Source: Bilabrum cf. latius (taxonomy: Eukaryota). From it: 64,000 nucleotides of DNA. The position numbers were made by a program, and so were the translations under genes. The notes beneath the pieces were generated by a model that worked only from the letters and a program-made list of their open reading frames with translations, was not told the DNA's origin and made no database searches. Each line of letters starts with the position of its first letter. Within the stretch, counting starts at the first letter, position 1. Of the stretch, positions 14,402-63,637 are shown piece by piece. The stretch is taken from contig OZ237758.1 in the NCBI GenBank assembly GCA_965178125.1, positions 868,001-932,000 on the forward strand, written 5' to 3'.

Positions 14402-16505
14402 ATGGGAGAGAAGAAGCACGTGAACTTGGTTGGTAAGTTTTTATGCATTTACTGGCGGCAAAATCCAAGGTGCGAGCCTGCTGGCGCAGATACGATGCTT
14501 TTCGTCTTTGCACGTGTACTTTGCTCCCACTCGCAGTGATCGGTCACGTCGACGCCGGCAAGTCGACCACCACTGGCCACCTCATCTACAAGTGCGGCGG
14601 TGTGAGTTTTCAACTCGTGCTGTTCAGGTTTGTTTGCTTTGGTATGCTGTCATTCTCGGTGTGGTTGCTGCTTGGCGCGTTGCCGGCTTGCAGTGTACCC
14701 CGACGTTTTCCAGCGATAGAGCTCGAGCATCCGCGGCCCAAACTACCTTCAATGGGTAAATGCATGCATATTTGTTTGATTGTGGGTGTGTGTTTGGTTA
14801 TAGACGCCGTTGGGGACGATGTTTTGGTCACGTTTCTGTGCGGCATCGCCACGCACGACCTCTAGCTCCAGTTTGGGCTTGGCTGCGGGGCTGGACAGGT
14901 TACAGGCGATTGCAGGCTGGTAATGTGGGTATTTGAAGCCAGTTTCTACCACTTTGAGTCGCCTGAAATTCTGTTGGGATCGGATTTGCAGATTCCGTGC
15001 GAGTGACCATGCGGTCGTTCCCTGCCCGATCGATGGCATGTCTGGGCACATGAAGACCCTTCGTGGCTTGTCAAGCGCGTAATAGGTTGCAATGTCACGT
15101 AAATATTACTATTGCGTGGCCTGATCACTCTCCCGCCCGAATTACTTGCTTCCTGAGAATCTTCGACTTGTCAACTTTTCTCTTGCAGATCGACAAGCGT
15201 ACCATCGAGAAGTTCGAGAAGGAGGCCGAGGAGATCGGCAAGTCTTCTTTCAAGTACGCATGGGTGCTGGACAAGTTGAAGGCTGAGCGCGAGCGCGGCA
15301 TCACCATCGACATCGCCCTGTGGAAGTTCGAGACCCCCAAGATCGAGTTCACCGTGATCGATGCCCCCGGCCACCGTGATTTCATCAAGAACATGATCAC
15401 CGGCACTTCCCAGGCGGACGTGGCCATGCTCATGATCTCTTCCGACCCCGGTGGGTTCGAGAAGGGTGTGTCCGCGGACGGCTCCACCAAGGAGCACGCC
15501 CTGCTGGCCAACACCCTGGGTGTGGAGCAGCTCATCTGCGCCACCAACAAGATGGATGCCACGGAGCCCAAGTACTCCAAGGACCGCTTCATGGAGATCT
15601 GCAACGAGATGGCCGTGCACGTGGCCAAGATCGGCTTCAAGCTGCCCAGCTACATCAAGGTGGACGGTAAGAAGTGCAAGATCGACGAGGACAAGTTCCT
15701 GGGCAAGGCTCAGTTCGACCTCGAGAAGGTGGAGAAGAAGGGCAAGAAGAAGGTGCTCAAGCACGTGCGCTTCGTCCCCATCTCCGGGTACGAGGGCGAC
15801 AACATGATCGAGAAGTCCGACAACCTCAAGTGGTGGAACGGCCCCACCCTGCTGCAGGTCCTCGACTCCGTGGAGCCCCCGAAGCGCCCCACCGACAAGC
15901 CCCTGCGCCTGCCCCTCCAGGACGTGTACAAGATCGGCGGCATCGGCACAGTCCCCGTGGGCCGTGTGGAGACCGGCCAGCTCAAGCCCGGCATGAGCAT
16001 CTGCTTCGGCCCCGCCGGCATCGTGACCGACTGCAAGTCTGTCGAGATGCACCACGAGTCCGTGGACTGCGCCAACCCCGGTGACAACGTCGGGTTCAAC
16101 ATCAAGGGTGTGTCTGTCAAGGAGCTCAAGCGCGGATACGTCGCTTCCGACAACTCGAACAAGCCCGCCACCCAGTGCGGCAGCTTCGAGGCCCAGGTGA
16201 TCGTGATGAACCACAAGAACATCCAGCCCGGCTACGCCCCCGTGATCGATTGCCACACTGCCCATGTGGCCTGCAAGTTCGAGTCCATCCCCGTGAAGCT
16301 GGACAAGCGTACCATGAAGAAGGTGGAGGACAACCCCAAGAGCCTCAAGTCCGGTGAGGCCGCCATGGTGAACATGGTGCCTTCCCGCCCCCTCGTGGTG
16401 GAGGGCTACAAGGAGTTCCCCCCCCTGGGACGCTTCGCCGTGCGCGACATGCGCAAGACCGTGGCTGTGGGCGTGATCCAGAAGGTGACCCCCAAGGCCA
16501 AGTAA
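14402..16505 (+). CDS. EEF1A: Translation elongation factor 1-alpha; exons 14402-14432, 14537-14601, 15189-16505; TAA stop
   Basis: Spliced product reads [45 protein letters not shown]...[20 protein letters not shown]...NKMD...[11 protein letters not shown]. Introns at 14433-14536 and 14602-15188. Strong C/G-ending codon bias and no TAG codons. Confidence 0.97.
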
Positions 16506-27265: not shown

Positions 27266-27472
27266 TTCTCGAAGTGGCTGTGGAGGCAATAGAAGTGCAT
27301 GGCAAGATTCAAGATGAAGATTTCAGTCCACCGAAGCGCATGAAACCGTTCGCACTTTATCCCGCGGAGCGCTCTTGTCTGCCCGCGTATTCTTCAAGCA
27401 TACGGACTTCCACACGAGACTATATAATATTCCGATCGATTCCGCCACTAAACGGCCAAGAAATCTACGTTG

Positions 27473-30400
27473 ATGGCGAAGTCTAACCTATCCGGCAAGA
27501 ATGCTGAACTGGAGGGGTTGTCGCTGCACACGCGGCTAATATTGTGCGTTATGGCGGCCATGCTCCCATTTATGATTTTACTAGTAGTCATGGTAGCAGT
27601 GACGTTGAGTACACAGTTTCCAGAATGGATCAAGGCCACCGAGGAGTACATGATAGATGCAGAGTCCGAGCACTTGGGCCGTGTTGCCGTAGAACAGTCT
27701 GCGTTCGCAGATCTGTACCTGCAGCGCGTGCGAAATGGTTTGACTGGGCTCTGTGATTTCGCGGAGGGTCTGATGGACGGCACGATCGATCGGAACGCAA
27801 ACGTCCCGCTGTACTCGTCGACAGATGAAAACCCGACTGCCAACGTGCCGCGCTGGAGCGACGGCACCGAGCGCTCCAACGAAGTCACTGCGTGGTACGT
27901 GTGTGAACCGGGCACGGGACCCCCATCTGCGTCGTGCGGCGTGCAGGACACCGTTCCCCCGAGGGCAGAGGAGAAGCTGCGCCGCGTGGCTCCTGCCGTG
28001 CTCGCCTTCCGGTCCATGCTCGTGGGGCAGCTGCCGGAGGGCAGGGGCGGCTTCTGGTCCGTCTCCTTCGAGGAGGATGGTGCCATGGCCGTGTTCCCTT
28101 ACCTGCAGCTGGCCGGGTTCAGGGACTGGGAGGGCCCCTGCTCGCCCATCGGGATCTTCCCCGCAGCGGAGCAGAGCGAGGGATACTCGGGGCCGGAGGC
28201 GAAGCGCGGGTACGATCCCCGGTGCAGGCCCTGGTACTCGCAGGCCAAGGAGGCGAACGGTAGGGTGCAGTTTACGGATCCGTATTTCTTCGCCGGGGCT
28301 CGATCAGAGGGGCCAGAGCTGGGTGTGACGGCCAGCGTGAGCATGCGGGGTCCCCGGTCGCTGCTTGACGGAACGTTCGTCGACGGCGGGATCGACGGTG
28401 GTTACAACCGGAGCGACCCCTCGTCGATGCCAGAGAACAGCTACGTGGCCTTCGAGGAGACCACGCAGACTGCCGGTGTGTGCATGGTGGACTTCTCCAT
28501 GAACGAGATCGACGTGAGGGCGAGGCAGAGGAAGCTTTCGGGGGGGTACGGCTTCATCTTCGTGGCCTCCACAGGAAACGCAGTGGTGCACCCCGCCCTG
28601 GACTGGGCCCAGGAGACGGAGGCGCGGTCCGTGGCGGGGTTCGAGTTCCCCGGGGAGGACACCGGCGGGGCGGGGTACACGGGGTTCGAGGAGGCTGTGC
28701 TGGAGCCCGCGCGGCAGTTCCGGAACGAGGAGGGTCAGGCGAGGTACACGAAAGGGGGCAAGCAGTGGCTGGCCGCCTGGGGTCCTCTGCCGTCGAGCGG
28801 GTACGTGCTGGCCGTGACAGTGCCCGAGGAGGACGTCAGGGAGCCTTTCGAGACGGCGAGGGAGGCCATCAACTTGCAGGTGCTGCTGCAGGTGATCATC
28901 TCTGCCGTGGCGGTCCTGGTGACGGGGCTCGTCAGCGCCTACTTGGGGAGCGTGGTGGCCGCTCAGGTGGTGGAGCCGGTGCTTCAGCTGAATGCGGTGG
29001 TGGACAACATCAACAACGCCAAGTTTGACGGGGAGCTGCCCCCCTTTGACCCCACCACCTCGGAGATGCAGCACCTGGAGAGCGTCTTCAGGGGGTTCTA
29101 CTCCCTCCTGCAGTTCGCCAACGCGAGGGTGTTCGAGGGAGACGCGGAGCAGGCCGAGATGGTGTTTCGCCGGGCGCTGTCCACCTTTGACCAGATCGGG
29201 AACGAGAGGGGGAAGGGCCTCTGCCTCAACAACCTGGGCGGGGTGCTGCTGCAGAAGGGCAGGGCGCACTACGACGAGGCCGTGGGGCTGTTCAGGCACG
29301 CCGTGGAGCAGGCGCAGTCTGCCACGCACCGCTTCTACCAGGCGCAGGACGCCGCCAAGCAGGCGGACAAGGAGGCCAGGGAGAGGGAGTGGATGGAGCA
29401 GCAGGCGAACCTGAATGGGATGGGGGCGGGTCTCCCCTCCCAGACGATGAGTTCCACCGGGGGCGGCCTGCCTCCCCGGATAGGCCGAGAGGAGACGGAG
29501 GAGGTGGGCTTTGGGATGCCGGGGACGAGGGCGGCGCCCGTGGCCCCGGGGCAGAGCCTCGCTGGCGTGGCCGCGGCGCAGGGCAAGGCGCTTCCCACGG
29601 GGCAGCAGGAGCTGGCCGCGGACGAGCGGGGTGGCATGTCGGACATCGAGCAGGGCGCGGGGATGGGGGGCGATTTCCAGGGGTTCCAGGGGGATTCCCC
29701 TGCGGCGCACTCCACCATGGAGCTGGCCCGGCAGGAGGCGAGGAGGAGAGCGAATCTGGCCATGGCGCTGCAGGCCCGGGCACTCATGGACAGGGCCGAT
29801 CTCGTGGAGGCGGCCGAGCAGCTGCTGCTGGCGGGGGGCATCGTGCAGTGGCTGGCGCAGCACCACGTGCCTTTGCCCACCCCCGAGGAACAGAAGCGAC
29901 TGCCTGCCGGGATCACCGCCCCCATGGCGCAGCAGGGAGTCTTCCTTGCCCTCAAGCGGTGGCAGCTAGGCCTGGCATGCAGCCGAGTGGCTGCACTCGC
30001 CCAGCACCTCTGGTACCAGGAGGACATGCCGCCCCGTGCTCGCAGCAGGAGCATGCGGGCGGGACAGGAGATGATCTACACGATGAGGCACGGGCACCCG
30101 CCCGAGCCCGGCGCGCCTTTGCCCATGCTGAGCGTGGAGCTGGTGAAAGACGCGGCCGAGATGGCCAGGTCCCTGTGGCGCGAGTTTCACCACTACACGG
30201 AGCACGCCTCCCCGCAGGTCGCCAGGGAACTGTTTGGGAGGGCCCCTGTGCACCACCTGCGGCGGCTGGTGGGGGGCGGGTCAGGGGGTGGCAAAACCGG
30301 CGGCTTTGGCCGGGTGGCAGGCGCAAGCGACACGTCCGACGACACGAGCGGGGACAGGGGTGACTATGACGACGCGAGCGTGAGCGAATCGGAGGGTGCA

Positions 30401-31264
30401 GGTGCAGGCACAGGCGCAGGGGCGGCCGCAAGGGCAGGGCAGGAGAGGTTCATCCCCGGCGTGGTGCCCGAGCTGAAGGACGCGACTCAGATGCGGGTGG
30501 TGATCATGGAGGCGTGGCTCGCCGCGGTGGAGGGACGGCTGGCGGTGACGCTGCAGCTGCTGCGGCAGTCGTTCCTGGAGCCCGAGTACATCGACCCGGG
30601 GGTGTCCAGAGAGGGCCTCAAGCTCATGGGGGCGGTGCTGGAGCGGTGCGGGGTGCAGGGGGGGAAGGACCTGTGCAGCGGCAGCGGGCCCCAGCCCAGG
30701 GACGTGGCGCTGGTGATCGACAGGTCGGGCAGCATGGCGGGGGGCAGGATGAGGAGGGTCAAGGCCGCCCTCGAGACGCTGGTGGGCGAGCACGTGAGCG
30801 ACAGGGACCACGTCGCGGTGGTGGGGTTTAACGAGAAAGTGCACGTTTCAATGCCGTACCGGCACCTGGGCAGCAGCAAGGCCCAGGTGCAGGCGGCCAT
30901 CGAGGAGGTCTGCAAGCCCGGGGGCGGCACGGCCATGTACGACGCACTGGCGCAGGTGCTGCGCGGGCTGGAGGGGGAGGACCGGACCAGGATGAACTAC
31001 GTGGTGTGTCTCACGGACGGAGAGGACTCCAATTCCAAGCAGACGGCAAACCAGGTGAGGCGCATGCTGGCGCAGCGCACGTCCACGACGCTCATCATCG
31101 TGAGCGTGGGCCGGCTGGAGACCGAGGCTAGCATCCGGTCGCTGTGCGAGGCCTCCAAGGGAGGGGCCCTGGTGACGGCGGAGAACAACGAGGCCATCGC
31201 GAGGGCCTTCAAGACGGTGAGCGAGCTGATCAACAAGCCGCAGACCACCTTCGAGGCCTACTGA
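27473..31264 (+). CDS. Membrane receptor-like protein: TM - dCache - TM - HAMP-like - TPR-like - C-terminal vWA
   Basis: Two TM helices flank YDPRCRPWY...FTDPY (Cache). VEPVLQLNAVVDNI is HAMP-like and GKGLCLNNLGGV is TPR-like. vWA MIDAS motif VIDRSGSM...GGTAMYDAL...CLTDGED. Ends TGA. Confidence 0.85.
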   Translation: MAKSNLSGKNAELEGLSLHTRLILCVMAAMLPFMILLVVMVAVTLSTQFPEWIKATEEYMIDAESEHLGRVAVEQSAFADLYLQRVRNGLTGLCDFAEGLMDGTIDRNANVPLYSSTDENPTANVPRWSDGTERSNEVTAWYVCEPGTGPPSASCGVQDTVPPRAEEKLRRVAPAVLAFRSMLVGQLPEGRGGFWSVSFEEDGAMAVFPYLQLAGFRDWEGPCSPIGIFPAAEQSEGYSGPEAKRGYDPRCRPWYSQAKEANGRVQFTDPYFFAGARSEGPELGVTASVSMRGPRSLLDGTFVDGGIDGGYNRSDPSSMPENSYVAFEETTQTAGVCMVDFSMNEIDVRARQRKLSGGYGFIFVASTGNAVVHPALDWAQETEARSVAGFEFPGEDTGGAGYTGFEEAVLEPARQFRNEEGQARYTKGGKQWLAAWGPLPSSGYVLAVTVPEEDVREPFETAREAINLQVLLQVIISAVAVLVTGLVSAYLGSVVAAQVVEPVLQLNAVVDNINNAKFDGELPPFDPTTSEMQHLESVFRGFYSLLQFANARVFEGDAEQAEMVFRRALSTFDQIGNERGKGLCLNNLGGVLLQKGRAHYDEAVGLFRHAVEQAQSATHRFYQAQDAAKQADKEAREREWMEQQANLNGMGAGLPSQTMSSTGGGLPPRIGREETEEVGFGMPGTRAAPVAPGQSLAGVAAAQGKALPTGQQELAADERGGMSDIEQGAGMGGDFQGFQGDSPAAHSTMELARQEARRRANLAMALQARALMDRADLVEAAEQLLLAGGIVQWLAQHHVPLPTPEEQKRLPAGITAPMAQQGVFLALKRWQLGLACSRVAALAQHLWYQEDMPPRARSRSMRAGQEMIYTMRHGHPPEPGAPLPMLSVELVKDAAEMARSLWREFHHYTEHASPQVARELFGRAPVHHLRRLVGGGSGGGKTGGFGRVAGASDTSDDTSGDRGDYDDASVSESEGAGAGTGAGAAARAGQERFIPGVVPELKDATQMRVVIMEAWLAAVEGRLAVTLQLLRQSFLEPEYIDPGVSREGLKLMGAVLERCGVQGGKDLCSGSGPQPRDVALVIDRSGSMAGGRMRRVKAALETLVGEHVSDRDHVAVVGFNEKVHVSMPYRHLGSSKAQVQAAIEEVCKPGGGTAMYDALAQVLRGLEGEDRTRMNYVVCLTDGEDSNSKQTANQVRRMLAQRTSTTLIIVSVGRLETEASIRSLCEASKGGALVTAENNEAIARAFKTVSELINKPQTTFEAY

Positions 31265-32865: not shown

Positions 32866-35800
32866 CCTCGTGCCCCTTCTCGCTCGTGCCCCTCCTCGTA
32901 CCCCTCCTCGTACCCCTCCTCGCTCGTATCCCTCCTCGCTCGTACCCCTCCTCGCTCGTGCCCCTCCTCGTACCCCTCCTCGTACCCCTCCTCGTACCCC
33001 TCCTCGCTCGTACCCCTCCTCGCTCGTACCCCTCCTCGCTCGTACCCCTCCTCGCTCGTATCCCTCCTCGCTCGTACCCCTCCTCGCTCGTACCCCTCCT
33101 CGTACCCCTCCTCGTACCCCTCCTCGCTCGTACCCCTCCTCGCTCGTACCCCTCCTCGTACCCCTCGCTCGTACCCCTCCTCGCTCGTACCCCTCCTCGC
33201 TCGTACCCCTCCTCGCTCGTACCCCTCCTCGCTCGTACCCCTCCTCGCTCGTACCCCTCCTCGTACCCCTCCTCGTACCCCTCCTCGTACCCCTCCTCGC
33301 TCGTACCCCTCCTCATTCGTACCCCTCGCTCGTACCCCTCCTCGCTCGTACCCCTCCTCGCTCGTACCCCTCCTCGTTCGTACCCCTCCTCGTACCCCTC
33401 CTCGTACCCCTCCTCGCTCGTACCCCTCCTCGTACCCCTCCTCGTTCGTACCCCTCCTCGCTCGTACCCCTCCTCGCTCGTACCCCTCCTCGCTCATACC
33501 CCTTCTCGCTCTTACCCCTCCTCGCTCGTACCCCTCCTCGCTCGTACCCCTCCTCGTACCCCTCCTCGTTCGTACCCCTCCTCGCTCGTACCCCTCCTCG
33601 CTCGTATCCCTCCTCGCTCGTACCCCTCCTCGTACCCCTCCTCGTACCCCTCCTCGCTCGTACCCCTCCTCGTACCCTTCGCTCGTACCCCTCCTCGCTC
33701 GTACCCCTCCTCGTTCGTACCCCTCCTCGCTCGTATCCCTCCTCGCTCGTACCCCTCCTCGTACCCCTCCTCGCTCGTACCCCTCCTCCTCGTACCCCTC
33801 CTCGCTCGTACCCCTCCTCGCTCGTACCCCTCCTCACTCGTATCCCTCCTCGCTCGTACCCCTCCTCGTACCCCTCCTCGCTCGTACCCCTCCTCATACC
33901 CCTTCTCGCTCGTACCCCTCCTCGCTCGTACCCCTCCTCGTACCCCTCGCTCGTACCCCTCACTCGTACCCCTCGTTCGTACCCTTCGCTTGTGCCCCTC
34001 CTCGCTCGTGCCCCTCCTCGCTCGTACCCCTCCTCGTACCCCTCCTCGCTCGTACCCCTCCTCGCTCGTACCCCTCCTCGTTCGTACCCCTCCTCATACC
34101 CCTCCTCGCTCGTACCCCTCCTCGTACCCCTCCTCGCTCGTACCCCTCCTCGTTCGTACCCCTCCTCATACCCCTCCTCGCTCGTACCCCTCGCTCGTAC
34201 ACCTCATTCGTACCCCTCCTCGCTCGTACCCCTCCTCGCTCGTACCCCTCCTCATACCCCTCCTCGTTCGTACCCCTCCTCGTACCCCTCCTCGTACCCC
34301 TCCTCGCTCGTACCCCTCCTCGCTCGTACCCCTCGTTCGTACCCCTCCTCATACCCCTCCTCGCTCGTACCCCTCCTCGCTCGTACCCCTCATTCGTACC
34401 CCTCCTCGCTCGTACCCCTCCTCGCTCGTACCCCTCCTCGTACCCCTCCTCGCTCGTACCCCTCCTCGCTCGTACCCCTCCTCGTACCCTTCGCTCGTAT
34501 CCCTCCTCGCTCGTACCCCTCCTCGCTCGTATCCCTCCTCGCTGGTACCCCTCCTCGCTCGTACCCCTCCTCGCTCGTACCCCTCCTCGCTCGTACCCCT
34601 CCTCGCTCGTACCCCTCCTCGCTCGTACCCCTCCTCGTACCCTTCGCTCGTATCCCTCCTCGCTCGTACCCCTCCTCGCTCGTACCCCTCCTCGTACCCC
34701 TCCTCGCTCGTACCCCTCCTCGCTCGTACCCCTTCTCGCTCGTACCCCTCCTCGCTCGTACCCCTCCTCGTACCCCTCCTCGCTCGTACCCCTCCTCGCT
34801 CGTACCCCTCCTCGCTCGTACCCCTCCTCGCTCGTACCCCTCCTCGTTCGTACCCCTCGCTCGTACCCCTCATTCGTACCCCTCCTCGCTCGTACCCCTC
34901 CTCGCTCGTACCCCTTCTCGCTCGTACCCCTCCTCGCTCGTACCCCTCCTCGTTCGTACCCCTCCTCGTACCCCTCCTCGTACCCCTCCTCGCTCGTACC
35001 CCTTCTCGCTCGTACCCCTCGTTCGTACCCCTCCTCATACCCCTCCTCGCTCGTACCCCTCACTCGTATCCCTCCTCGCTCGTACCCCTCCTCGCTCGTA
35101 CCCCTCCTCGTACCCCTCCTCGCTCGTACCCCTCACTCGTATCCCTCCTCGCTCTTACCCCTCCTCGCTCGTACCCCTCCTCGCTCGTACCCCTCCTCGT
35201 TCGTACCCCTCCTCGTACCCCTCCTCGTACCCCTCCTCGCTCGTATCCCTCCTCGCTCGTACCCCTCGTTCGTACCCCTCCTCATACCCCTCCTCGCTCG
35301 TACCCCTCGCTCGTACCCCTCATTCGTACCCCTCCTCGCTCGTACCCCTCCTCGCTCGTACCCCTCCTCGTACCCCTCCTCGCTCGTACCCCTTCTCGCT
35401 CGTACCCCTCCTCGTTCGTACCCCTCCTCGTACCCCTCCTCGCTCGTACCCCTCCTCGCTCGTACCCCTTCTCGCTCTTACCCCTCCTCGCTCGTACCCC
35501 TCCTCGCTCGTACCCCTTCTCGCTCTTACCCCTCCTCGTTCGTACCCCTCCTCGTACCCCTCGCTCGTACCCCTCACTCGTACCCCTCCTCACTCGTGCC
35601 CCTCCTCGCTCGTACCCCTCCTCGCTCGTACCCCTCCTCGTTCGTACCCCTCCTCGTACCCCTCGCTCGTACCCCTCACTCGTACCCCTCCTCGCTCGTA
35701 CCCCTCCTCGCTCGTACCCCTCCTCGTACCCCTCCTCGTACCCCTTCTCATACCCCTTCTCGCTCGTACCCCTCCTCGTACCCCTTCTCATACCCCTCCT

Positions 35801-35901
35801 CGCTCGTACCCCTCCTCGCTCGTACCCCTCCTCGTACCCCTCCTCGTACCCCTCCTCGCTCGTACCCCTCCTCGCTCGTACCCCTCCTCGTTCGTACCCC
35901 T
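32866..35901. repeat. About 3-kb irregular satellite of 16-, 13- and 12-bp units (CCCCTCCTCGCTCGTA / CCCCTCGCTCGTA / CCCCTCCTCGTA)
   Basis: Continuous array with strong C/T versus G/A strand skew. Nearly every unit contains GTACCCC. Confidence 0.97.
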
Positions 35902-36393: not shown

Positions 36394-39030
36394 TTACCAG
36401 CCATCGTCGTCGCCCCAGTCGTCCGTGCCAAAGTCAATATCAGCCGCTGACGCGTCAGGCTTGCTCCTTGCCCCGGTTGCGGTGGCGCTGCTCAGCACTG
36501 CCGCTTGGGCTGCTCCTTGGCTTGATCTGGTCTATGGCAACCCCAGTCTCGTTCCAACCTTCTTACTGGGGGCAAGGGCGGGTGTAGCAACCGGTGGCAG
36601 CCCGAGGTCGTCTCCTTCGTCGCCCCAGCCGTCGCCATCGCCCCAGCAGTCTGCCTCGGCCTCGTCCAGGGGATTCGGCTTGCTCCCACCGGTTGCAACG
36701 GAATGCAAGGCAGTGCTGGCCGGGGGTTTGGAGCCGTGAGCCCCATCCTTTGGGGCACCTGCGCGTGTGGCGGCCGCACCACCATGCGATGCAACGTTGG
36801 ACGCACCTGCACTTGCCCCAGCGCGCAAACGGGTGCCAGACCCACCGCTGGCCCCTTGAAGTTGTTCCCCGGCCCCATCAGACCCCCCTCCGCTGCTACC
36901 GCCGCTACTCCCCACCCATCCGAGGGCAGAGGTCAGCAGACCGCTCCCACCACCGTGAGATGCATCCTTCCCACTGCCCAATCCCTCGGCGCTCCTGGCC
37001 CTGGCCCCCGAAGCCTCCCTCGCCTTCTCCTCCGCCTATTTCACCCTCTCTCGGGCCTCCTCCTTGTCCAGCTCCCGCTCGTGCCTCGCCTGCAGCAGCC
37101 CAGAGGCGGCCTGCAGCAGGGACAGGGCGGCGCCCCGCACCTCGCCAGACCTGTCCAGTGCCAGCTGGCCGGCAGCCGTCAGGCCGTACCGCACTACCGC
37201 AGCGCCGCTCACGGGCACCGGCCCACCATCTCCCTACCCCTCCCCCTTGTCCTGCCCCTTGCCCTGCCCCTGCCCCTGCCCCTGCCTGTGCCCCTGCCCC
37301 TCCTCCTTGCCCCCCTGTTTGCCCCGGAGAAGCGCTGATGTGGCGCGGACCGCTGCGGCCCGTACCGCCAGCGACCCGTCCCGCATCGGTGTGACGAGTG
37401 CGGGGAGCACCGCCTGCCTGTGTTCCGCAGAGAGCGGCGCCGCGCACCTCCCGATGCAGATGACAGCGTTGACCCTCAGGGCGGGGACAGCATCCGAGGC
37501 GGCCACCCGTGCCAGCTTGCCCGTGCACAGCTGCTGGCGCATGGCCGGCGTGAGCCTCGGTCCGAACTGCAGGGCGGCCTTCAGCGTGGCCTCCCTCATC
37601 TTGGGCAGCGTGTCGTCCAGCCCCTCCACGGCGCGGGGCCAGACGCTCTCGCGGACAGTCCTGTCGTCGATGGCCGGCAGGTAGGCCTGCAAGTTGTCCA
37701 GCAGCTGCAGCCGAGTGGCTCGATCCGGAATCGCAAAGAGCCTGAGCAGCGGTGGCACCACCCTGGCCCTGTACTCGTCCTCAGGGAGCGCCCTCCCGAT
37801 CGACAGCAGGGGGGCCAGCACCGCCGTCCCGCCTCCCGCGGCACCCCCGAACTCGAGCGCGTGCAGCAGCAGCGGCAGCACGCGGCCCCTCTAGGCCTCT
37901 TCTGCGACGCTGGGCAGCAGCCGGGGGAGTTCCTGGAAGAAGCGGGCCTTCTCAGCCGGGTCCTTCAGAGGAAGGTTCTCTAGGAACGAGAGAACCTTCA
38001 CCGTGGGGTTCCCCAGGAGAAATCCCCCAGGGGCACCCAGGGCCTGCCCGGGCCTGCTCCTGGACCTGGGACTCGCCATCAGCAGCCTCTGCACCCCCGG
38101 GCGCATCCCAGCAGGCACTTTTCCAGCCGCTTCCCGTGCCAGAGCCACCGCTGCCTTTGGGTCCATGCACGTCTGCAGCCGCCTGCACAGTGCCCTGGGG
38201 TCGGGCGACATGGCGGTGCAGGCCAGAAGGCCGGCCGCCCATGCGTCCACACCAGCGCCGGTCCATGCCCCCCCAGCTGATCCACCGGTGGATTTCATCC
38301 GCTCCGGGGCCGCCCACGCGCCGGGCATGAGCCCGTGGACCGAGCTGCCCGCGTCCCGCAGAAGGAAGGAGGAAGCACCTCCCGCGCCGCTGCCGGGTGC
38401 CGCGCCCCCCTCCGAGCCCCCGTCGGTTTCTTTGAGGGGGGAGCAGAGGTCCAGGGCGCCGATCCGCCACTCCCCGCCGGCCGTGACGAAGACCGCGTCT
38501 GGCGAGAGGGCCCCGTGGGCCACGCCGGCGTCTCGGAAGAACTCGGCGGCCTGCAGCACCCTGCAGACACCCCAGGCCAGCAGTCCAGGGTGGGGGGCCT
38601 TCGATGACCGCTCCGCGCCTGCGTCTGCGTCCGCTTCCACCAGGCTCTCGCCTTCCAGCCACATCATGAGAGGAACGGCATCCTCGGTAACCATCGTGAT
38701 TTCCTTCTCGTCTTCGACGGCATGAATCAGCCTTAGCACGGAAGGGTGCTTCAGGGTGCGCAACTTTCGCATAGCGTTTTGTGCCATGGCCACGTCGGTT
38801 TCGCCCTTGCCTTCTTTTGGAAAGCGGAACACCAGGACGTGCTTGCCCAGAGTCGACGAATCTGTTGCTGCCGCGGCAGCCGCAGCGGCCGCCGCACCAC
38901 CCTCAGCCGGTTCTGCAATCGCTTTTCGCTTCGCTCTTGACAGCGCCCAGCCAGTCGTGTAGTACATGAATGCATTGTCCTTGCCGGCTTGCTCCTCCTC
39001 GAACGGGAGTGCAGAGGATGAGACGCCCAT
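36394..39030 (-). CDS. SCY1/SCYL1-like pseudokinase with HEAT repeats, about 878 aa, 4 in-frame TAG, TAA stop
   Basis: Motifs AQNAMRKLRTLKHPSVL, HGALSPDAVFVTAGGEWRIG, VLPLLLHALEFG, DRATRLQLL and LRVNAVICIGR. TAG at 37891, 37234, 37036 and 36532. Ends DDWGDDDGW-TAA. Confidence 0.88.
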
Positions 39031-39235: not shown

Positions 39236-42151
39236 TCATATCGCCACCGCAGATCCCACGGGGGCGCCGAAGCCCGACTGCCCCGTCGGCTCCACGCCAC
39301 CACCAGCCCCGCCGATCGGACCTTCCTTCCCCTTCCGTCCGGCCACACCGCTTGCATCACCACGGCCGGTGCCACCGACCGGCCCTCGCTTCGACGGCGC
39401 GCCTGCCGATGCACCACCGTTCCCTGCACCTGCAGTGCCGGATCCGGCCCCACCGGAGGACGACCCCACCTCGGGGTCTCCCAGCTGCCCCGCCTCTCTC
39501 GCCGCCTGGAACGCGGCCTCCTCCTCCTTCTCATTCAGCTCGCGCACCCACCCAGGTAGCGACAAGGCATCCAGCACCAGCCCCAGCCCAAGCAAATTCA
39601 GAGACACGAAGGCGAGGCAGAAATGGCCCCACCGACGCAGGTACAAGTGGTGCACCCCGAACAAGCCCCCGAAGGAGAGTAGCAGGATGTACGCCGTCAC
39701 CAGGTCCGTGCGATCGTCGCGAACCTTCACCTCGTGTTCCTCGGCGAGCTCCTCCCCCGCCAGCGCCGCCTCCAGTTCCGCAGTGGCCCCCGGCGCCGCG
39801 CCGCCCGCCTCCCTCCGCGCCTGGAGCGCCTCCCCGCGGCTGTACTCCCTGTTCCCCAGCACCCCGTGTTCCCTGAGGGCCACGCGGCGGCGGGCCTGGT
39901 ACGCACCGTGCAGTGCACCCAGACACAGCCCGTCCGCCAGGAAGCCCACCCCGCAGCCACCCACAGAGAGCATGTACCCCACCCCCCTCCAGCAGTTCCC
40001 CAGTAGGAAGTGGTGCGCCCCCATCCACCCGCCCACCAGCCAGAACACGATGACGTGGACCATGTGCAGCGGCTCGGGGGCACCGGAGGAGCACCAGTCC
40101 CCGGCCTGCAGTGCCCTGTGCCGCATGGCCACCACGGCCGGGTCCTCCTGCTCCTGGAAGGAGGCCCCGCTCAATCCACCGGTGGATTGGCACCCCTACT
40201 CTTGCTGCTGCAGGTGATCGTGCTGCAGCAGCTCACGGCTGTGCTTCTTGCCCCCGCCATACCCGTCCCCGGCCTCCACGTCCACGCTTACTCCCACGTC
40301 ACCCGCAGACGCAGCGGCAGCACCACCGGCAGCACCGCTCCAACCCGGCTCCGCCGCCCCTTGCTCGTCATGCTTGCCTGCTCCGAACCCAGGTACTGGT
40401 GCGGGGGCCGGGGCAGGCTCGGCCTTGCCGGCGGCAGCAGGCGCAGCCCGCAGGTCCCCAGTTGCTGCTGCTGCAGACCCGTTGTGCCCTGCAGCTGTGT
40501 GGCCACCGGCTATGCCAGACACCCGCTCCCGCCTCGAGTCCTCGACTGCGGCCATCTGCAGCAGCACCCGCTTCCTGGCACGCTGTTCCCTGGCTCCCTC
40601 GCTCCTCTGGAGGTGCAGCAGGGCCATGTCGCAGAGCCATCCCAGCCCGCACCCCCCGAAGCTGAGGAAGTAGAACAGGCCCAGGCGCACGCGGCCAGAG
40701 AAGCAGTGGTGCAGGCCCGCAAATCCACCCATGGGCAGCCAAAGCAGAAGGTCCTTCTCGGCTTCCCTGGTCGTCACGCGGGAGTGCAGCTGCTGGTGCC
40801 ACCGCACCTGCCACGGGCCGTCGGCTCGCTCTGCCAACTCCCGTGCCCTCTCCGGAAGCAGCCATGGGCCGTGGTCGTACCCGTCCCTCCACCCCTCGCA
40901 CCCGCACAACTCGCCGTTGGGACACGCCGATTCGGAGCAGGGAGTCTGTCCCTCTTCACTCGTCACACCAACGGGCTGCCCCTTCGTGGGCTACTCGGAG
41001 AGTTGGTCTGGCGGTGGCGCTGGGGCAGGTGCCAGAGCTTCTTTATTTCCTTGTTCTCGCCCTCCCGCAGCCCGCATGCTCCCATGCTGCTTGCTCTCTT
41101 TCTCGTCGCCTCGATGGGCAGCTGCCGCGAAGATTGTGTCCGCGTGCACCGGGCCATCTGCCCCCACCGCACCGACGTAGAAGCCGGCGGCAGCCCTGCC
41201 GCCTTCTCGCACACCTATAGTGGCTTGCGTCGATGCCACACTTTGTCCCTGCCCCTGCCCTTGCCCTTGCCCTTGCCCTTGCCCCTGCGCTTGCCCCTGC
41301 GCTTGCCCCTGCGCTTGCCCTTGCCCCTGCCCATGGCTGCTTCCGCCCCTCATGGACACCTTGGCCCTGCCCCTCCCCCACGGCGCGGCCTTCTCCCGGT
41401 TGCAACCGGTACAGCAGCTGGACAGGTACTGGCTGCACAGGGAACACGGCGCCATAGATCGAAGCGGGTCGTGCTGGATGCGCCACTGCGCGTGGGACAC
41501 CACCCGCGGCATGACTACGAGGTCATACAGCCAGCCCAGGCCCAAACCGCCGAAGCTGAAGAAGTAAGCGAGGCCACGCTCCCAGCTGGCGAGGTAAACA
41601 TGGTGCAGCCCAAAGATGCCGAGAGGGAAGGCCAGCTTGTACGCGTCCGAGGTGTACTTGTGCGTCGCGTGCGGACTCCGGTTGTAGTCAGCCACCATGT
41701 CGTGCAGGGAGTGAGCATCAATCAAGTGCCACAGCAGGAGGAGAAGAAGGCTCCAGAACGAAGGATCACTATTGATGCACACTACAAGAACCGCGCAGTA
41801 GAGGATGGCGTAGTTGTAATGCCGGAGGTACAGTCGGTGCGCTGCGATGAGTGGGCCGGGGAAGGCCCACAGCATGTAGGCTGTGCACGTCGATTTTTCC
41901 TCCGTGTAGCAGCAGCGGGCGAGCGTTGTATCAACACTAAGCCATCTTATACCGCTGACACACCCCATAATGCAGGATCCGATGCAGCAGCAGCACCGAA
42001 GGGGAATCGGATCACTTGATCTCGAGTCGTCGCCTGGGTTGTTCGTGGCAACGCTCGGGACGCTCTGCACAGGCTTCTCCGGCGGAAAACCGGACGAAAG
42101 GGAAGACCCATTCGAATTTATACTGGTAGATCCCTGCTATTGTTTACTCAT
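39236..42151 (-). CDS. Multi-pass membrane protein with five TM2-like domains, about 971 aa, 3 in-frame TAG
   Basis: Five TM2-like motifs: LIAAHRLYL, GIFGLHHVYL, GFAGLHHCFSG, GWMGAHHFLLG and GLFGVHHLYL. One frame through TAG at 42137, 40991 and 40196. Ends TGA. Confidence 0.8.
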
Positions 42152-55581: not shown

Positions 55582-58500
55582 ATGTCCTCCAGCCGGCGAG
55601 CTCCGGGTGTAGATGAGGGTAAGGCACGTACATCTCGATACGAGTGATACTGTATCCGGCAGTATCTGCAAAACTCTGGCTTTTATGCTCTTACACGCCA
55701 GTTTGCGATGCCTCCCGCTAGTCACCACATCTGTGCGCCTACGTCGCTAATTGTGCGCCGCAGAGACAATACGATAGGCAAAGGAAGATGTTGAAAAGCT
55801 GATAGACGAGCGACGAATGCTAAAGGACGGCAGCCACCCGACCTTGATCGCTCGCTCCCAGCTGTTTCAGGCGCAACTCGACAAGAGAGTGCAACAAGCG
55901 GAGTCATATCTGGCTTTCTAGAAGCAGAGCGCCGAGTTGCAGTGTAGGTACGAGCAGTGGGAAGCCAAGCAGCTGTATCGGCAGGCGTACGAGGACGCTC
56001 GCGCAGATCTTGACCGTATGGTTGCCGACAAATTGGAAGAAGCCAGGGCGTTTGCCTCCGGTAGAGGTGAGAACAATTAATCATACGGATGGTCTCTGCG
56101 CGGTTTCACGCGATATGCGTCCCTTACGCCCCAGCCGTCCCGTACGCTCCAGCACCCCTCGTGCACCGACATACGTGCTCTCCCTCGCAGGTCGGCTGTC
56201 CGCCCGCTCCCGTCGGTCAAGGCGGGGGGCTGCCTCAGAAGGGGGCCAGCTTGGGGCATCGTCATCCGCAGGGGCGTCGGGGCCTGGGGCAGCAGCCGCG
56301 GGAGCTGCCGCATCGGGAAGCGCGGGTGGGGTCGCCGCCGGAATCGGGGCCGCTGGCGCCGCGGGCGATGAAGTTCCGCAGGTGCGCATGCCAGGGGAAG
56401 GAGGCATCCACGGGCAGGAGGCCACGCAGGCCGCCGTGCAGAGAGCCGCTGCTGACGCGGTGAGGCACGGTGCCACCGCTGGTGCCCTCCCCGGCCCCCA
56501 GCCCCTGGACCTCCTCCTGGCGGGGGAGACGCCTCTGCCCATGAGTCTGACGAGGGCAGAGGTCATGGACGACATGAGGGCTGTGTTCCTCGACTACAAG
56601 ACGGCGGCCCAGAGGTACGCCAAGGCCACGAGCCACCGCCTGCTGCCCGTGAGGGTGGACAAGGGCGTGCTGTATTGCGGCTCCGAATCCTTCCAGTCCG
56701 GCGAGGCCGTGGTGGTGGTCAGCGAGCTCTCGGCTCAGGCATTCCCCGGCACCCTCATCGGAGCCAACGCGGTGGAGGCGGCCTGCGAGCTAGCAGACGG
56801 GACGAGGGCGAGGCTCCCGCTGGCCTACCTGCGTGCGGGGCGGCTGGTGATCCGCAAGGCGGCGGGGGCGCGGGGCGGGCTGCAGGACCTGGACGCTGAC
56901 CCCCTGCTCAACGGACATGCGTCCAGGGCGCGGGTGCAGGCGGCCACTAGGGCGGTGCAGCGCGCGGCGGCGGTCGCCTCTGAGATTGTGAGGCGGGAGC
57001 GGGAGGCGCTGCCCGTGCGGGAGGCGCTGGAGGAGAGGAGGAGGCTGGAGGCAGAGGCTGCCAGGGAGGCGCTGGAGGCAAAGGCACAGGCCAGAGAGGC
57101 GGCTGCTGCGGCTGCCTCCTCTTCCTCCTACTCCGCGTCTTCCTCCACTCCATCGGGCGCTGCTGCCGGCGCGGGGGCAGGAGAGGGCACCCACGGAAGC
57201 AGCGGTGGGGGTGCAGCTGCTGCTGCTGGCTCTGGCGCTCCCCCCTCGGGCGGTCGGAGGTCGAGGGGGCGGCCGGCGGGGAGCGGTGGAGGGGCCGGGG
57301 GCAGGAGGAAGGGCCGAAACGGTGGGCAGGCCGGGGGATAGCAGCAGCAGCAGCAGCAGCGGCAGGTGATGGGAGCTGCAGGTGCAGGCGAAAGTGAAGA
57401 TGGCCACATGGAGGAACAGGGGCTTGGTAATGCCTCTGGCCAACAACCCATGGAGGGGGGCGATGACGGGGGCAAAGGAGCCCTGGAGGCGCTCAACGAC
57501 GCCGTGGGTGCCGTGGCGGAGGCGGAGCTCGTGGCGGGCGGGGGTGTGGCGCAGGCCCGTGGGGAGTACAGTGGAGGTGGTGTGACGAGTGAGGTGCGGC
57601 AGCCCCCAGCGGTTGAGCCACAGGTGCAAGCACAGCCACAGGCGCAGGCACATGCTCAGCCACAGCCCGGCATGGATGGGGCGCATGGCGAGGGCCCGGT
57701 CGAGTCGTCGGAATCGGGTGCTGCACCGGGGCAGGCCCAGGGAACAGACGGGGATTAGGCCCAGGGAACAGGCGGGGATTAGGCCCAGGGAACAGGCGGG
57801 GATTAGGCCCAGGGAACAGACGGGGAGCAGACCAGTGGTGAGCCGGCGGCCGGGTCAGGAGCTGCAGTCGCGGGCGGCGATGATTTGGCGGGGCAGCCTG
57901 CCCCTGCCCCTTCAGCGGTGCCTGGGCAAGAGGAGCGAGGAGCGGGAGGGCATGGGCGGGGGGCACAGCGGACTGGGTCTTTGTTGACAGGTGCGGGTGC
58001 GGGCGAACAAGGCAAGGAGCAGGAGCAGGGACAGGGGTCCATGGGTGGTGCAGGAGCCTAGGCAGAGGCGGGCGAGGCACAGCTTGTGGCTGCAGGCCGA
58101 GGCCCGGCTGGGTCTGGGCCAGTAGCCGAGAGGACAGTGGTGCCGGCAGCATCTCAGCCAGCGAGCGCAGGTGCAGTGCACGGTGCAGCAGCAGGGCAGA
58201 CCTCTCCTATCCAGTAGCAGTAGGAGTAGGAGGGTGATGATGATGGAAATGCCGAGGTGAAGCATGCGGGGGGGGCTGCGCCTGGCCAGGCCGATGCAAT
58301 GCAAGAAGAGGTGGCTCCTGTGAGCCAGGGCCAGGCACTCGGTGGGTCAGGACCAGCGGCTGTCGCTGCATCGCCTGCTCCATCAGCCTAGGCACCTGCA
58401 TCAGCAGCCTCCACCTCGTCATCCTCGACCGCACAGGCAATGCCTGCACCGCACAGATCCGCGCCATCAGTCCAGCCGATCGAACATGCCAGCGGGGAGC

Positions 58501-58997
58501 AAGAGGGTAGCGGCGCGGGATTGGGACCGGTGGTGCCTCCTACTCTGCCTGGGACACAGACTGCCATTGGGTATGAAGGGGGGGCGCTGGCACTGGCAGG
58601 AACGGGGCAATCGGCAATGAGCGGGAGCAGCAGCAGCAGCAGCAGTGCAGAGGTAGGAGCAGGAGCGGGGGCGGGCGCGTCGACTGGCGGTTCGTCGCAG
58701 CCATCCGGAGCGGGTCCAGTCCTTGGGAGCAAGAGGGCGAGGGGTGACGATGACGATGACGGGGCGGGAGGCGGGTCTGGGGAGGGCGCTGAAGGGGCGC
58801 CCGAGAGAGGGGGGGGCAGCAGCAGCGGTAGTGGGGGGGCAGGGGCAGCAGTAGGGGGGGACGCTGCAACGGTGGTACGACTTGGCGGGGCACCCGTCGG
58901 CGGCAGTGCAGGAGGGTAGGGGGAGGGCGGCGGTGAGGGCGGCGAGCGGCCTGGCAAGGTGAGGGTGGTAGACGGCGAGGGAGAGGGGGAAGGGTGA
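55582..58997 (+). CDS. Sds3/SUDS3-like Sin3-HDAC subunit with a long low-complexity tail; exons 55582-55618, 55764-56066, 56191-58997; about 12 in-frame TAG
   Basis: Coiled coil with LKDGSHPTL. C-terminal module LTRAEVMDDM...VRVDKGVLYCG...DGTRARLPLAYLRAGRLVIRK resembles SUDS3. Phase-consistent introns at 55619-55763 and 56067-56190. Ends TGA. Confidence 0.75.
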
Positions 58998-59117
58998 TTC
59001 GGTCATTGGCGTTGCGTAAGTGCCCAATGTTGATGCATTGAAACCGCTGGCTAAGTTTGGTGAATCTACATCTAATACACTATGTTCCCATGACAAACGC
59101 GAGCTCGGTTTGCGGCC

Positions 59118-59576: not shown

Positions 59577-59710
59577 GATTGGCCGTGCAGCCGAAATGTG
59601 GCTTCTGCTGCGACACTATACCAGACAAATTGAGGCTATTGTTGCGTTCGATCAAAGAGGCGAACAACTGCAACTTCCGCTGTAGCTACGCACTAGACTC
59701 AAACAACGCT

Positions 59711-60736
59711 ATGGAGCTGCACTATAGTGCTATAGAAGCCATTCATCCACGTGCATTTCAGGAAGAAGCTTTGAAAAGGGGTTTGCGATGCGACGGACGC
59801 AAGCTACTGGAATGCAGGAGAGTTGGTGTTGAAGTTTTACCCCGGGCAGACTATGGCAACTCTGTTCTGGCATCTATTGGATCGACCCAAGTCATTTGTG
59901 GCCTAAGAATATCTAGAGTGGACTGTGGCCCTGTGGCCACCCCAAGTCCTGTTGTTCCGGAGGATGTGCCTGAGCCCATGGAGCCTGATTCAAGCGCTAG
60001 GGCTGCACCATCAAGCGAGGCAGCAGCCCACGAAGCGCACTTTGAGGTCCAGTATTCTGCATTGTGCGGCCAGCATAGTGCTAGGGCCGGTTCGAGCGGC
60101 GTTGGAGCAAGCTCAGTAGGAACAAGACAGCCAAGAGAAGCCATGAGGATATCTCGTCTTCTGCAACGTGTGTTCCAAACAAGCAAATGCCTAGATCTAG
60201 CCAAGTTTCCTTCGGTTCCTTCGGATGATGAGGCTTCAGGCACCGCTAAAGCACAAGCGTGGAAATTGGAAGTAACGTGTATCGTTGTAGTTGACGACGG
60301 GGCGACAGACGCCGCGTGTGTAACCGCTGCCGCAGCGTGCTTATCAGCTGTCACTTTTCCAACTAGCAATGACTCCATTGGCTCCAGCTGTAACCTATTG
60401 GGTCGCGTGCCAGTGGCGCTGTCTCTCGCTATCGTCGCCACAAAATCAACCGTAGACGGCACGTAGCTATTGCCCGATGCAGAAGCTCGGGAAGAGGCTC
60501 TTGCCGAGACTGCAGGTTCAGTGGTTGTGGAAGTTAGCGGATCCCAACCATAGATTCTTGCGATCGATTTTGCTGTGGGCTCTGGATCATTTGCTAGAAG
60601 CGCTGAAGCAACTAGTGTGGCGAAAAAAGCAATAACGTTTATTGCAAGTAATGCAGAAGGTTTGACGTATACTTCCCAAGTCATGTCTGCGATTCGATCT
60701 GTAAGAGAGTGTGCTACAGCACGATCACTCTCGTGA
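59711..60736 (+). CDS. RNA exosome RNase PH-like subunit, most like RRP43; 2 in-frame TAG
   Basis: IHPRAFQEEALKRGLRCDGRKLLECR, NSVLASIGSTQVICG, AWKLEVTCIVVVDDGATDA. The LLPDAEAREE motif lies beyond the TAG at 60464. Second TAG at 60551. Ends TGA. Confidence 0.82.
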
Positions 60737-61382
60737 CAATGAACTATGCTTTGATCGATTAGATTCATAGTGACAAAAAACGCTCTTGATCGTGCTCGGA
60801 CACTATATCACACAATCAGTCAACGTTTGATAAGTCTTTGTAATATTTTTTTGGGCGCTCCATGATATAATTAATTATACTTTCTGCTAGTTTGTTTCTC
60901 ATGCGGTGTTTCAAATACTTCTGAACGGAGTGAATTGTAGTCGATGTGCAAGGTGTTTCAATTCATGATTTTACGTATTTGAGCCCAGGAACAGTTTCAG
61001 ATCCCAACCACAACCACTAATCGTTTTGGGGCCCGCCCGCCGGCGAGTGTATGCCAACTCTCCGTTTACAATAGTAAAAATAAGACTCTTCATATTATTC
61101 AGGTCGCAATTTAATTTGATTGTTTACAATTTGCATGCTGGTACTGCGCTAATTTCCGATAGAATTCCTAAAGGTACAAGTTTTCCTATCATCTTCTCAT
61201 GGGCTGAGGCTTTCGACCCGGCTATATCAAATGTCTGCTAGTATCCAATTTGGTCAAAATTTCTTAATGATCGTTACTTTTTCTTTGTAGTCGACATGAT
61301 TACGATGCAATGTATCTTAACTGTGATTCAAATGTTGCAAATTTCAAAATCCCTTTCTTGCCAAAGGCAAACAAAGGCGTTC

Positions 61383-61741
61383 ATCCTTGCGATCGATTTT
61401 GCTGTGGGCTCTGGATCATTTGCTGAAGCAACTTATGTGGCGAAAAAAGCAATAACGTTTATTGCAAGTAATGCAGAAGGTTTGACGTATACTTCCCAAG
61501 TCATGTCTGCGATTCGATCTGTAAGAGAGTGTGCTACAGCACGATCACTCTCGTGACAATGAACTATCCGGATGCTTTGATCGATTAGATTCAAAGTCAC
61601 AAAAGACCATCCGAATCGTGAGAGTATGCTCTTAGCAACATAATTACACAATCTGTCTACGTTTGATAAGTCTTTGTATTATTTTTGGCGCTCCATGATT
61701 TAATTTCTTTCTGCTAGTTTGTTTCGCATGCGGTGTTTCAA
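61383..61741 (+). pseudogene. Diverged partial duplicate of the RRP43-like 3' end and 3' flank (source about 60554-60914)
   Basis: Near-identical CTTGCGATCGATTTTGCTGTGGG...CGATCACTCTCGTGACAATGAACTAT...ATGCGGTGTTTCAA, with small indels and no 5' part of the gene. Confidence 0.85.
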
Positions 61742-62101: not shown

Positions 62102-63637
62102 TCAATCAATTGCATTCAGAATTGACGTTGTAGTTGTCGCGAAAAGTGAGAACACCCCAAACAGCATCAGAGCTGCACTCGGTAGAATCTCTTGTAGCAC
62201 AGTGGAGCATGACGTAGGGGCATCCTCACCCCGCCAAATGACTAGGCGAAGGGCACCTGGCATAATAAAACCAATGATCGTTGCACTCACCCCTCCTGTA
62301 AGCTCTAATACTATTCCTAAATCCTCGACGACCATTGCAATCCCAACAGTTGATGCCCAAATCAACAGAGATACAGCTACATGAGACCACATGCTCAACT
62401 CAAGCTTAGTCCTGACTGCTTGCTAAACTGCAACCCGAGATGGTTCAATATCTTCTGCAGCAGGTGCTGATGCGCTACTTTCGTCGTCAACAAGGGAGGG
62501 TTGGTGACCACCCTGTTCATCCTCCACTTCCATGTAAAGACCAAAAAGAGAGCCAATACAATGCCGAACAACGAACACTTCCATTGGATAAGTGAGTATC
62601 ATAGTAGCTGCATACCCAACACGAGTTAAATTGGCCCACTCGTCGGAGTCCTGATAGTTGTTAAGTACATTTGCCATTGTGACTCCCCCAAACGTAACAT
62701 AGCCAACGACACCAAGGCAAATCGAAGCCAGAAATGCAACTATGAGGCTTAGTCGAGCAGTGTGTCGCCAAAGATCCAACGAAGGCTCGTCAAGACTATG
62801 GAAAACCAAAAAGCTGTTATGGTGGCAGACGTATGCAAATGCAAACACTCCTATCGATGGTAACGCGTCCTTTCCAAAAAGCACAACGCCATCGCTTTCA
62901 TCTTGCGCATCAGATGCTGAATCGGTTTCCCCGGCGCCCGTTGCTAAACGAGCGATCGTAAAAGCCAATATCCATGCGACTGCGGCCAGAGAAATTCCCG
63001 AAGACCAAGACAGGGTTGACATGTTTCCAACCATCGAAAGCGGCAAAACAACAACAAATGCAACACCCCCTAGAATGACTCGCCGCAACCAGCTAGGAGG
63101 ATCATCATCGTCTCCTATAGCCCAGTGGGCCACAACTGTGCTCAAGGTATCTGTCATGATAATCAGGTACGCGCAGCAAGCACCATAGCCGAATAGGGCG
63201 TTGGCAATGTTCACAGTGGCCCACCCATAGTTACCAAACACCCTGCCTGCCAGTGATTCGTAGTCTTTCTCGTGCAGAAGTACGCCTAGGCGTATGATCA
63301 AGGTCACGCCAAAGTACGTCGCAAGCGCGATTCCAAGCAAGAGAATAGTTCCCAGAACGATCCCAGCCTCCTACATTGCGAAAGGCAGCCCAATGATCCC
63401 GGCACCAATAATTGAGTTAATGAAATTTGAGCTCGCACCAAGCATAGTTGATCCGTTTTGCTGCTACTAACGCTACTCCGCGCTGTCCTACTGCTTGACA
63501 GGGGCAAAGACAGCCGTTTGTTCCTGATGGGTCTGCCCCGCACTGGTGTCCCGACTGGTGGCACCACCCTCCTCAACCGGCACAGAGGGAGTACTCCTGA
63601 CACCAGATAGTTCTATTTCTTCCAACTCGTCAGCCAT
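62102..63637 (-). CDS. Amino acid transporter, Aa_trans/SLC38A11-like, 511 aa, 6 in-frame TAG
   Basis: NFINSIIGAGIIGLPFAM*EAG, FAFAYVCHHNSFLVF, ILTYPMEVFVVR and DLGIVLELTGGVSA motifs, with multiple TMs. Ends TGA. Confidence 0.9.

Follow-up and report, generated by a model that had tools for sequence, protein, structure and literature searches.

A 64-kb stretch of contig OZ237758.1 (64,000 nucleotides, positions 868,001 to 932,000 of the forward strand; called here the window, in whose own coordinates all positions are given) carries a gene for a protein resembling the Sds3/BRMS1-like subunits of the Sin3-HDAC co-repressor (PF08598), and a 24-bp tandem array in the 3' part of this gene has either CAG or TAG as the first codon of its units. 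Judged from its sequence, this putative chromatin-regulator gene carries the array in a long, low-complexity C-terminal tail. In this report, we describe the gene and its array, the use of TAG, TAA and TGA in the genes of the window and the homologues that bear on both, and we consider it likely that the array is translated as four copies of QAQGT[D/G]G[D/E] within the Sds3-like tail, that UAG is a sense codon, most probably for glutamine (Gln), and that UAA and UGA terminate translation.

The Sds3-like gene and its 24-bp array

The gene is composed of the following parts.

55751..56066, plus strand: upstream exon, weakly matching Sds3, with in-frame TAGs at 55775 and 55919
56067..56190, plus strand: intron predicted from sequence, 124 nt, with GT..AG ends, a guanine-plus-cytosine (GC) content of 0.60 and a phase that joins both exon frames
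56191..58997, plus strand: large exon extending to a TGA stop at 58995-58997, with 10 in-frame TAG and no TAA or TGA before the stop
56517..56861, plus strand: conserved C-terminal domain of the Sds3-like family, the anchor for 45 homologues
57339..57359, plus strand: a TAG followed by six CAG codons, which is a seven-Gln run if TAG is Gln and the end of the protein under the standard code
57474..57692, plus strand: tail segment matched by P0254, an open reading frame (ORF) fragment of a relative, with 56 of 87 aligned columns identical
57732..57827, plus strand: 24-bp array of four in-frame units, QAQGT[D/G]G[D/E], unit 1 starting with CAG and units 2-4 with TAG
57828..57830, plus strand: CAG codon of the 3' flank of the array, not a fifth unit
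58731..58760, plus strand: KRARGDDDDD, a basic-acidic segment resembling a nuclear localisation signal, preceded by 9 of the 10 TAGs

The proposed gene model would join the exon at 55751-56066 to that at 56191-58997, would terminate at the TGA at 58995 and would read as sense codons all ten TAGs of the large exon (57339, 57756, 57780, 57804, 58059, 58215, 58221, 58227, 58389 and 58917), three of which lie in the array. The likeness to Sds3 comes from the homology of the C-terminal domain, for which an exhaustive HMMER search returned the 45 homologues at E<=1e-3, and from a weak match of the upstream exon. Among 12 homologues scanned, Pfam Sds3 scored above its cut-off in five and below it in one; the upstream ORF of the present gene (55751-56080) matched PF08598 with E=6e-4 and 20.3 bits in the Pfam search, below the 25.4-bit cut-off. 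Neither a start codon nor the true 5' end of the gene was found, and because the model lacks the N-terminal part, the Sds3 match may be truncated. The protein differs from typical PF08598 members in this sub-threshold match and in its tail, which extends about 760 residues beyond the conserved motif when TAG is read as sense and which is absent from typical members.

Tandem Repeats Finder reported a single array (57733-57826; period 24, 3.9 copies, 97% matches, score 174), which is far beyond chance. A preliminary description of the locus had given the unit pattern as x-GCC-CAG-GGA-ACA-GRC-GGG-GAK and placed it in coding frame, and both points were confirmed: the pattern is seen in four units, and these share the reading frame of the ORF at 55848-58994. 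A period of eight codons and a location in frame agree with coding sequence without proving it. The same description had counted five units, and the codons at 57732, 57756, 57780, 57804 and 57828, read from the sequence, are indeed CAG, TAG, TAG, TAG and CAG; however, the sequence from 57828 (CAG ACC AGT GGT GAG CCG GCG GCC) shares with the unit only its first codon and two of the three bases of the second, and it is therefore flank, which leaves four units. GAT followed by TAG stands at three junctions as identical copies, and CAG is confined to the first unit and the 3' flank. Because the three TAGs are duplicated copies, the contrast between CAG and TAG, although real, reflects about one inferred C/T transition that is visible at either edge of the array, as opposed to a series of independent exchanges, and the weight that had been placed on this interchange as evidence for synonymy was overstated. 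The remaining differences between units are non-synonymous (GAC/GGC, D/G; GAT/GAG, D/E). Taken alone, the array cannot separate a synonymous change in coding sequence from a neutral change in a 3' untranslated region (UTR), and by itself it is weak evidence.

Use of TAG, TAA and TGA across the window

Genes identified by Pfam, and two control sites within them, are listed here.

6877-8436, plus strand: piggyBac-like transposase
12035-14047, minus strand: CNOT11
15189-16502, plus strand: EF-1alpha
16503..16505, plus strand: TAA terminator of EF-1alpha, a control site at which 8 of 8 aligned homologues end
25550-27322, minus strand: FAD oxidoreductase
27473-31261, plus strand: VWA protein
36397-39030, minus strand: SCY1-like pseudokinase
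39239-42151, minus strand: protein with four TM2 domains
59579-60733, plus strand: RRP43-like RNase PH protein
62105-63637, minus strand: Aa_trans transporter
63371..63373, minus strand: TAG within GLPFAM-TAG-EAG, a conserved motif of the Aa_trans transporter; control site

Codons were counted in ten long TGA-delimited ORFs of the 64-kb window (7843 codons in frame and 15666 off frame). In frame, these ORFs contain 46 TAG, 0 TAA and 0 TGA; off frame, the counts are 99 TAG, 52 TAA and 232 TGA. The absence of in-frame TGA follows by construction from the delimitation of the ORFs, but that of TAA does not: the off-frame rate predicts about 26 in-frame TAA, and none was observed (P(none) = 5e-12). 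TAG, in contrast, occurs in frame at a frequency of 0.59%, equal to the 0.63% found off frame, and thus shows no sign of being selected against. Seven Pfam-supported coding sequences (4801 codons) contain 13 TAGs, and such codons interrupt regions of clear family membership: the Aa_trans match covers residues 69-511 of the transporter ORF, and of the six TAGs in this gene those at residues 96 and 412 lie inside the match, which argues against the standard code.

TAA is not reassigned. Besides EF-1alpha, the SCY1-like ORF likewise meets a TAA, after ...DDWGDDDGW. TGA still terminates, since it is common off frame (232 of 15666 codons) and since the TGA of the transporter falls where the C-termini of its homologues end. 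Homology-anchored C-termini in the window number two, EF-1alpha with TAA and the transporter with TGA, and neither uses TAG. The 46 TAG against no TAA in frame, together with the TAA stop of EF-1alpha, therefore mark TAG as a sense codon and TAA and TGA as stops. The direct observation is one of codon use, with TAG in frame in homology-supported genes and TAA as a terminator. Over the 64 kb, ARAGORN found no tRNA gene and Rfam gave no match, and eRF1 was not among the genes identified in the window by Pfam.

Glutamine as the most probable meaning of TAG

A sense TAG might encode a residue other than Gln, with glutamate (Glu) as the runner-up and Leu, Ser, Tyr and Lys having a precedent or lying one mutational step away; codes in which UAG is Leu, Ser or Glu are described for other eukaryotes in the available text of McGowan et al. 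(2024, PMC11687900). We judge such an alternative quite improbable on the following evidence. The transporter TAG at 63373 (residue 96) corresponds to Q in P0121, a 95%-identical protein of a relative that has identical flanks and whose ORF was called through this position; the match argues both for Gln and against an unchanged standard code. CAG or CAA adjoins 9 of 39 TAGs (0.23), compared with 25 of 259 Gln codons (0.097) and with 0.108 at most for any other residue. A likelihood test of the context of +/-3 residues around 50 in-frame TAG sites, among which the three TAGs of the repeat units are not independent, ranked Gln first of the 20 amino acids with a log likelihood ratio of +13.0; Glu was second (+7.4), a point in its favour, and Gly reached +5.3, whereas Ser (-8.3), Leu (-10.0) and Tyr (-18.1) scored below zero. 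TAG also starts the (CAG)6 run at 57339, at 58212-58229 it alternates with both CAG and GAG, CAG stands at both edges of the array, and CAG to TAG is a single transition.

Several observations count on the other side of this assignment. The other 14 homologues of the transporter vary at the column of residue 96 (K in four, R in three, E in two, and H, A, G, N and S in one each), so that K, R or E is found in many distant homologues, and this is the only TAG site that could be compared with a near-identical relative. The TAG at 60464 in the RRP43-like gene lies opposite a Leu of human RRP43, in an alignment from a PDB search that is weak and non-significant (domain i-Evalue 22). Finally, a second 24-bp array (22516-24384) of 78 copies shows 74 CAG codons at the first position and not one TAG there, an absence that is neutral in itself, the array being too homogenised to inform. 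This second array is in frame, matches at 92%, encodes (QQAGAGP[A/V])n with variation almost only between GCG and GTG, and uses 74 CAG, 73 CAA and no TAG as its Gln codons; it is held by an ORF of 1379 codons (20867-25003) whose seven TAGs all lie outside the array. Further comparisons added nothing at TAG sites: when the window was aligned with itself by BLAST to look for paralogous TAG/CAG pairs, four TAG mismatches were obtained (TCG three times, AAG once), none of them informative, and in searches against PDB the piggyBac-like ORF had no match and the SCY1-like gene had one match, which covers no TAG site.

The distribution of TAG among genes follows their GC content at third codon positions (GC3). 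Three high-GC3 genes (EF-1alpha, the VWA protein and the FAD oxidoreductase, the last taken as 25550-27202 for this tally; 2252 codons in all) contain 97 CAG, 1 CAA and 0 TAG, and the transporter contains 6 CAG, 6 CAA and 6 TAG. TAG and CAA are both common in low-GC3 genes, and TAG looks like a minor, non-preferred Gln codon, as CAA is. The preliminary assignment of TAG to Gln is thus supported, mainly by evidence outside the repeat, namely the ORF counts, the Q of P0121 and the 50-site context.

Probable translation of the tail beyond position 57341

The ORF at 55848-58994 comprises 1049 codons with 10 TAG, 0 TAA and 0 TGA and ends at the TGA at 58995-58997, and the other two plus-strand frames contain 16 and 19 TGA over the same interval. 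In the tail (57342-58994, 551 codons), frame 0 has 9 TAG, 0 TAA and 0 TGA, compared with 7 and 15 TGA in the other plus frames (P = 1.7e-5 for zero TGA at the mean rate of those frames); in the 193 codons past the TGA stop, the same frame has 4 TAA, 1 TAG and 6 TGA. A GC content of 0.63-0.77 and an excess of G over C are unbroken from 56100 to 58999, with no change at 57341, and past 59000 the GC content drops abruptly to 0.48-0.58 and the skew is reversed. The purine skew is likewise continuous past 57341 and breaks only after 58997, and three-base periodicity in the tail is strong (GC1/2/3 = 0.80/0.64/0.62).

Comparison with homologues also bears on the tail. P0254 (96 residues) aligns to it with gaps at three places (14, 2 and 6 residues), each a whole number of codons. 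A motif of KR[APQV]R followed by acidic residues is present in the tails of four of the five closest homologues (not P0245) and occurs once in the window, as SKRARGDDDDD, past nine TAGs of the large exon. Although most Sds3-family homologues stop about 10 residues past the conserved domain (e.g. P0261, P0263, P0266 and P0280), as a protein ending early would, the closest ones (P0243, P0244, P0245 and P0249) possess low-complexity tails of 380-520 residues. Continuation of the Sds3-like protein beyond 57341, as far as the TGA at 58995, is well supported.

Some features of the tail fit this conclusion less well. The codon-usage score prefers frame 0 of the tail only weakly (+0.045 per codon, compared with -0.040 for the next plus frame), and in 57831-58388 another frame outscores it. 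GC3 is 0.62 in the tail and 0.82 in the core. On the opposite strand of the tail, one frame contains just 1 TGA and 0 TAA, and open frames are therefore cheap in DNA of 69% GC. In a Pfam search of tail and core, the tail matched no family, and in a word-indexed search of 5.8 billion proteins that included shorter ones, P0254 alone matched it; no fragment from the tail search spans the repeat or any TAG of the Sds3-like gene.

These features leave room for two explanations in which the repeat is not translated. In one, TAG is Gln genome-wide but the tail is untranslated or only partly translated, either because TAG is context-dependent and acts as a stop near 3' ends or because introns have gone unrecognised. 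Ambiguous stop/sense codes occur in some ciliates and in Blastocrithidia, according to the portions of the literature available to us, and both the fall in GC3 from core to tail and the limitation of anchored C-termini in the window to two would be compatible with such a case. However, the equal frequencies of TAG in and off frame show no selection against it, TAG is used at neither of the two homology- or composition-anchored termini checked, frame 0 is free of TGA and TAA for 551 codons past 57341, and the TAGs are preceded by purine-rich sequence, whereas the acceptor of the single predicted intron is pyrimidine-rich; we therefore regard this explanation as very unlikely. The other, hardly credible, is the standard code, under which the Sds3-like protein would stop at the TAG at 57339-57341, the repeat would be a duplication in the 3' UTR and the open frame a by-product of high GC, as the short homologues, the weak codon-usage signal, the nearly open antisense frame and the lack of a Pfam match would allow, but against which stand the TAG-interrupted transporter, its Q-bearing relative, the 46 TAG with no TAA or TGA in 7843 in-frame codons and the tails of the closest homologues. 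The 3' UTR scenario that the preliminary description had named as the contrary case, with the protein ending at 57341, is likewise disfavoured by the composition break at 58997, the whole-codon gaps of P0254 and the shared motif of the tail. Translation of the array as part of a long Sds3-like tail is thus the reading that we adopt.

Other features of the window

The window also contains a satellite of about 3 kb at 32867-35901 (period 16, about 208 copies, 83% match). Its strands are extremely asymmetric, with a GC skew of about -0.64 at 34-36 kb; several of its frames are open, and it matches no family. The piggyBac-like transposase at 6877-8436 on the plus strand (PF13843, E=3.5e-13; no PDB match) contains TAG in frame at 4 positions but neither TAA nor TGA, and the element is either adapted to the code of its host or decaying. 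The first exon of EF-1alpha, with the region of the G1 motif, lies outside the ORF at 15189-16502, and the gene therefore has at least one intron upstream of it. A second copy of the 3' part of the RRP43-like gene lies immediately downstream (60768-61594 versus 59579-60733; 86% identity over 377 bp), and the translated C-terminus is near-identical in both copies. At 1593-1940, within ORFs that overlap on the two strands, a 174-bp unit is tandemly duplicated (98% match). The FAD-dependent oxidoreductase at 25550-27322 on the minus strand (PF12831, E=1e-89) is encoded by one ORF that has no introns and a very high GC3. Members of PF12831 are mostly bacterial, and this bias of the family would suggest horizontal transfer of the gene.

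Discussion

The source of the window is probably a stramenopile related to bicosoecids, though not Cafeteria itself, because the closest named homologues come from Cafeteria roenbergensis (two matches; EF-1alpha 68% identical, transporter 43-45% identical). An insertion of about 40 residues in EF-1alpha is present in seven of eight aligned homologues, those of Cafeteria roenbergensis and six others; this shared insertion and the GC-rich composition (61%) argue that the organism is not a ciliate. The ORF calls of the relatives P0121 and P0254 start at the first Met after positions that are TAG in the window and end early, which is what standard-code prediction on a genome with TAG as Gln would produce, and this suggests that the relatives share the code.

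The code proposed here would be of the Iotanema type, the table that NCBI numbered 15. In the nuclear code of Iotanema spirale (Fornicata), UAG is Gln, UAA and UGA are stops and, within the text available to us, no UAG terminators are recorded (Panek et al. 2017, PMC5304391). The two cases are alike in that UAG alone would be assigned to Gln while UAA and UGA retain their role as stops (PMC5304391), and they differ in that the lineages are unrelated and the present genome is GC-rich. Among terminators, TGA is the commoner in the few genes seen here, whereas the accessible text on Iotanema describes UAA as predominant, and the evidence there comes from 126-730 transcripts, as opposed to one 64-kb window in our case (PMC5304391). 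Reassignment of UAG only to Gln is also described for Protocruzia tuzeti and two phyllopharyngean ciliate lineages, with a code table identical to the one proposed here (PMC11687900); those organisms are ciliates and the source of the window is not. Codes of the NCBI table 6 type, in which both UAA and UAG are Gln, are given for many ciliates, hexamitin diplomonads and others in the text at hand of PMC5304391; they share with our case the conversion of a stop codon to Gln and differ in that TAA is not reassigned here. The cases of a changed UAG with UAA kept as a stop that are named in the available part of PMC11687900 are Iotanema, Protocruzia, two phyllopharyngean lineages, a rhizarian (UAG = Leu) and Scotinosphaera (UAG = Ser). 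For Cafileria marina, the accessible text of the relevant paper treats the mitochondrial code only (PMC6723347), and in the open-access and bioRxiv literature covered by our search no nuclear code variant was reported for a stramenopile or a bicosoecid, although an earlier report is possible. The window probably represents a new case of the known UAG-only variant with Gln, possibly the first in stramenopiles.

We propose that nuclear UAG was reassigned, most probably to Gln, with UAA and UGA still acting as stops. By analogy with other UAG-only reassignments, this would involve a tRNA-Gln with the anticodon CUA, which would read UAG but not UAA, and an eRF1 that would lack recognition of UAG; that a tRNA with the anticodon CUA pairs with UAG and not with UAA is an argument set out in the available text of PMC11687900, and PMC5304391 likewise underlies this analogy. 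At the locus itself, one transition from CAG to TAG at a unit junction, accompanied by a change from GAG to GAT, may have been tolerated because it was synonymous, and duplication of the unit would then have copied the changed junction (GAG-CAG to GAT-TAG) to three junctions.

A wider reading, which we advance tentatively and hold to be possible rather than probable, is that a GC-rich relative of Cafeteria reassigned UAG alone to Gln independently of Iotanema and the ciliates, as the first nuclear code variant recorded in a stramenopile, and that TAG is in this organism a minor Gln codon, absent from high-GC3 genes and concentrated in disordered tails rich in Q, in which transitions from CAG to TAG may accumulate freely. 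Standard-code gene prediction would truncate or split a large share of the proteins of such a genome, as the 46 TAGs in ten ORFs here imply and as the calls of P0121 and P0254 illustrate. Nuclear code changes are rare outside ciliates, and those in which UAG is changed with UAA kept as a stop are rarer still. If the proposed code is true, an independent case in a GC-rich stramenopile would therefore be a data point on the decoupling of UAG from UAA, and it would offer a free-living lineage in which the accompanying changes in tRNA and eRF1 may be studied.

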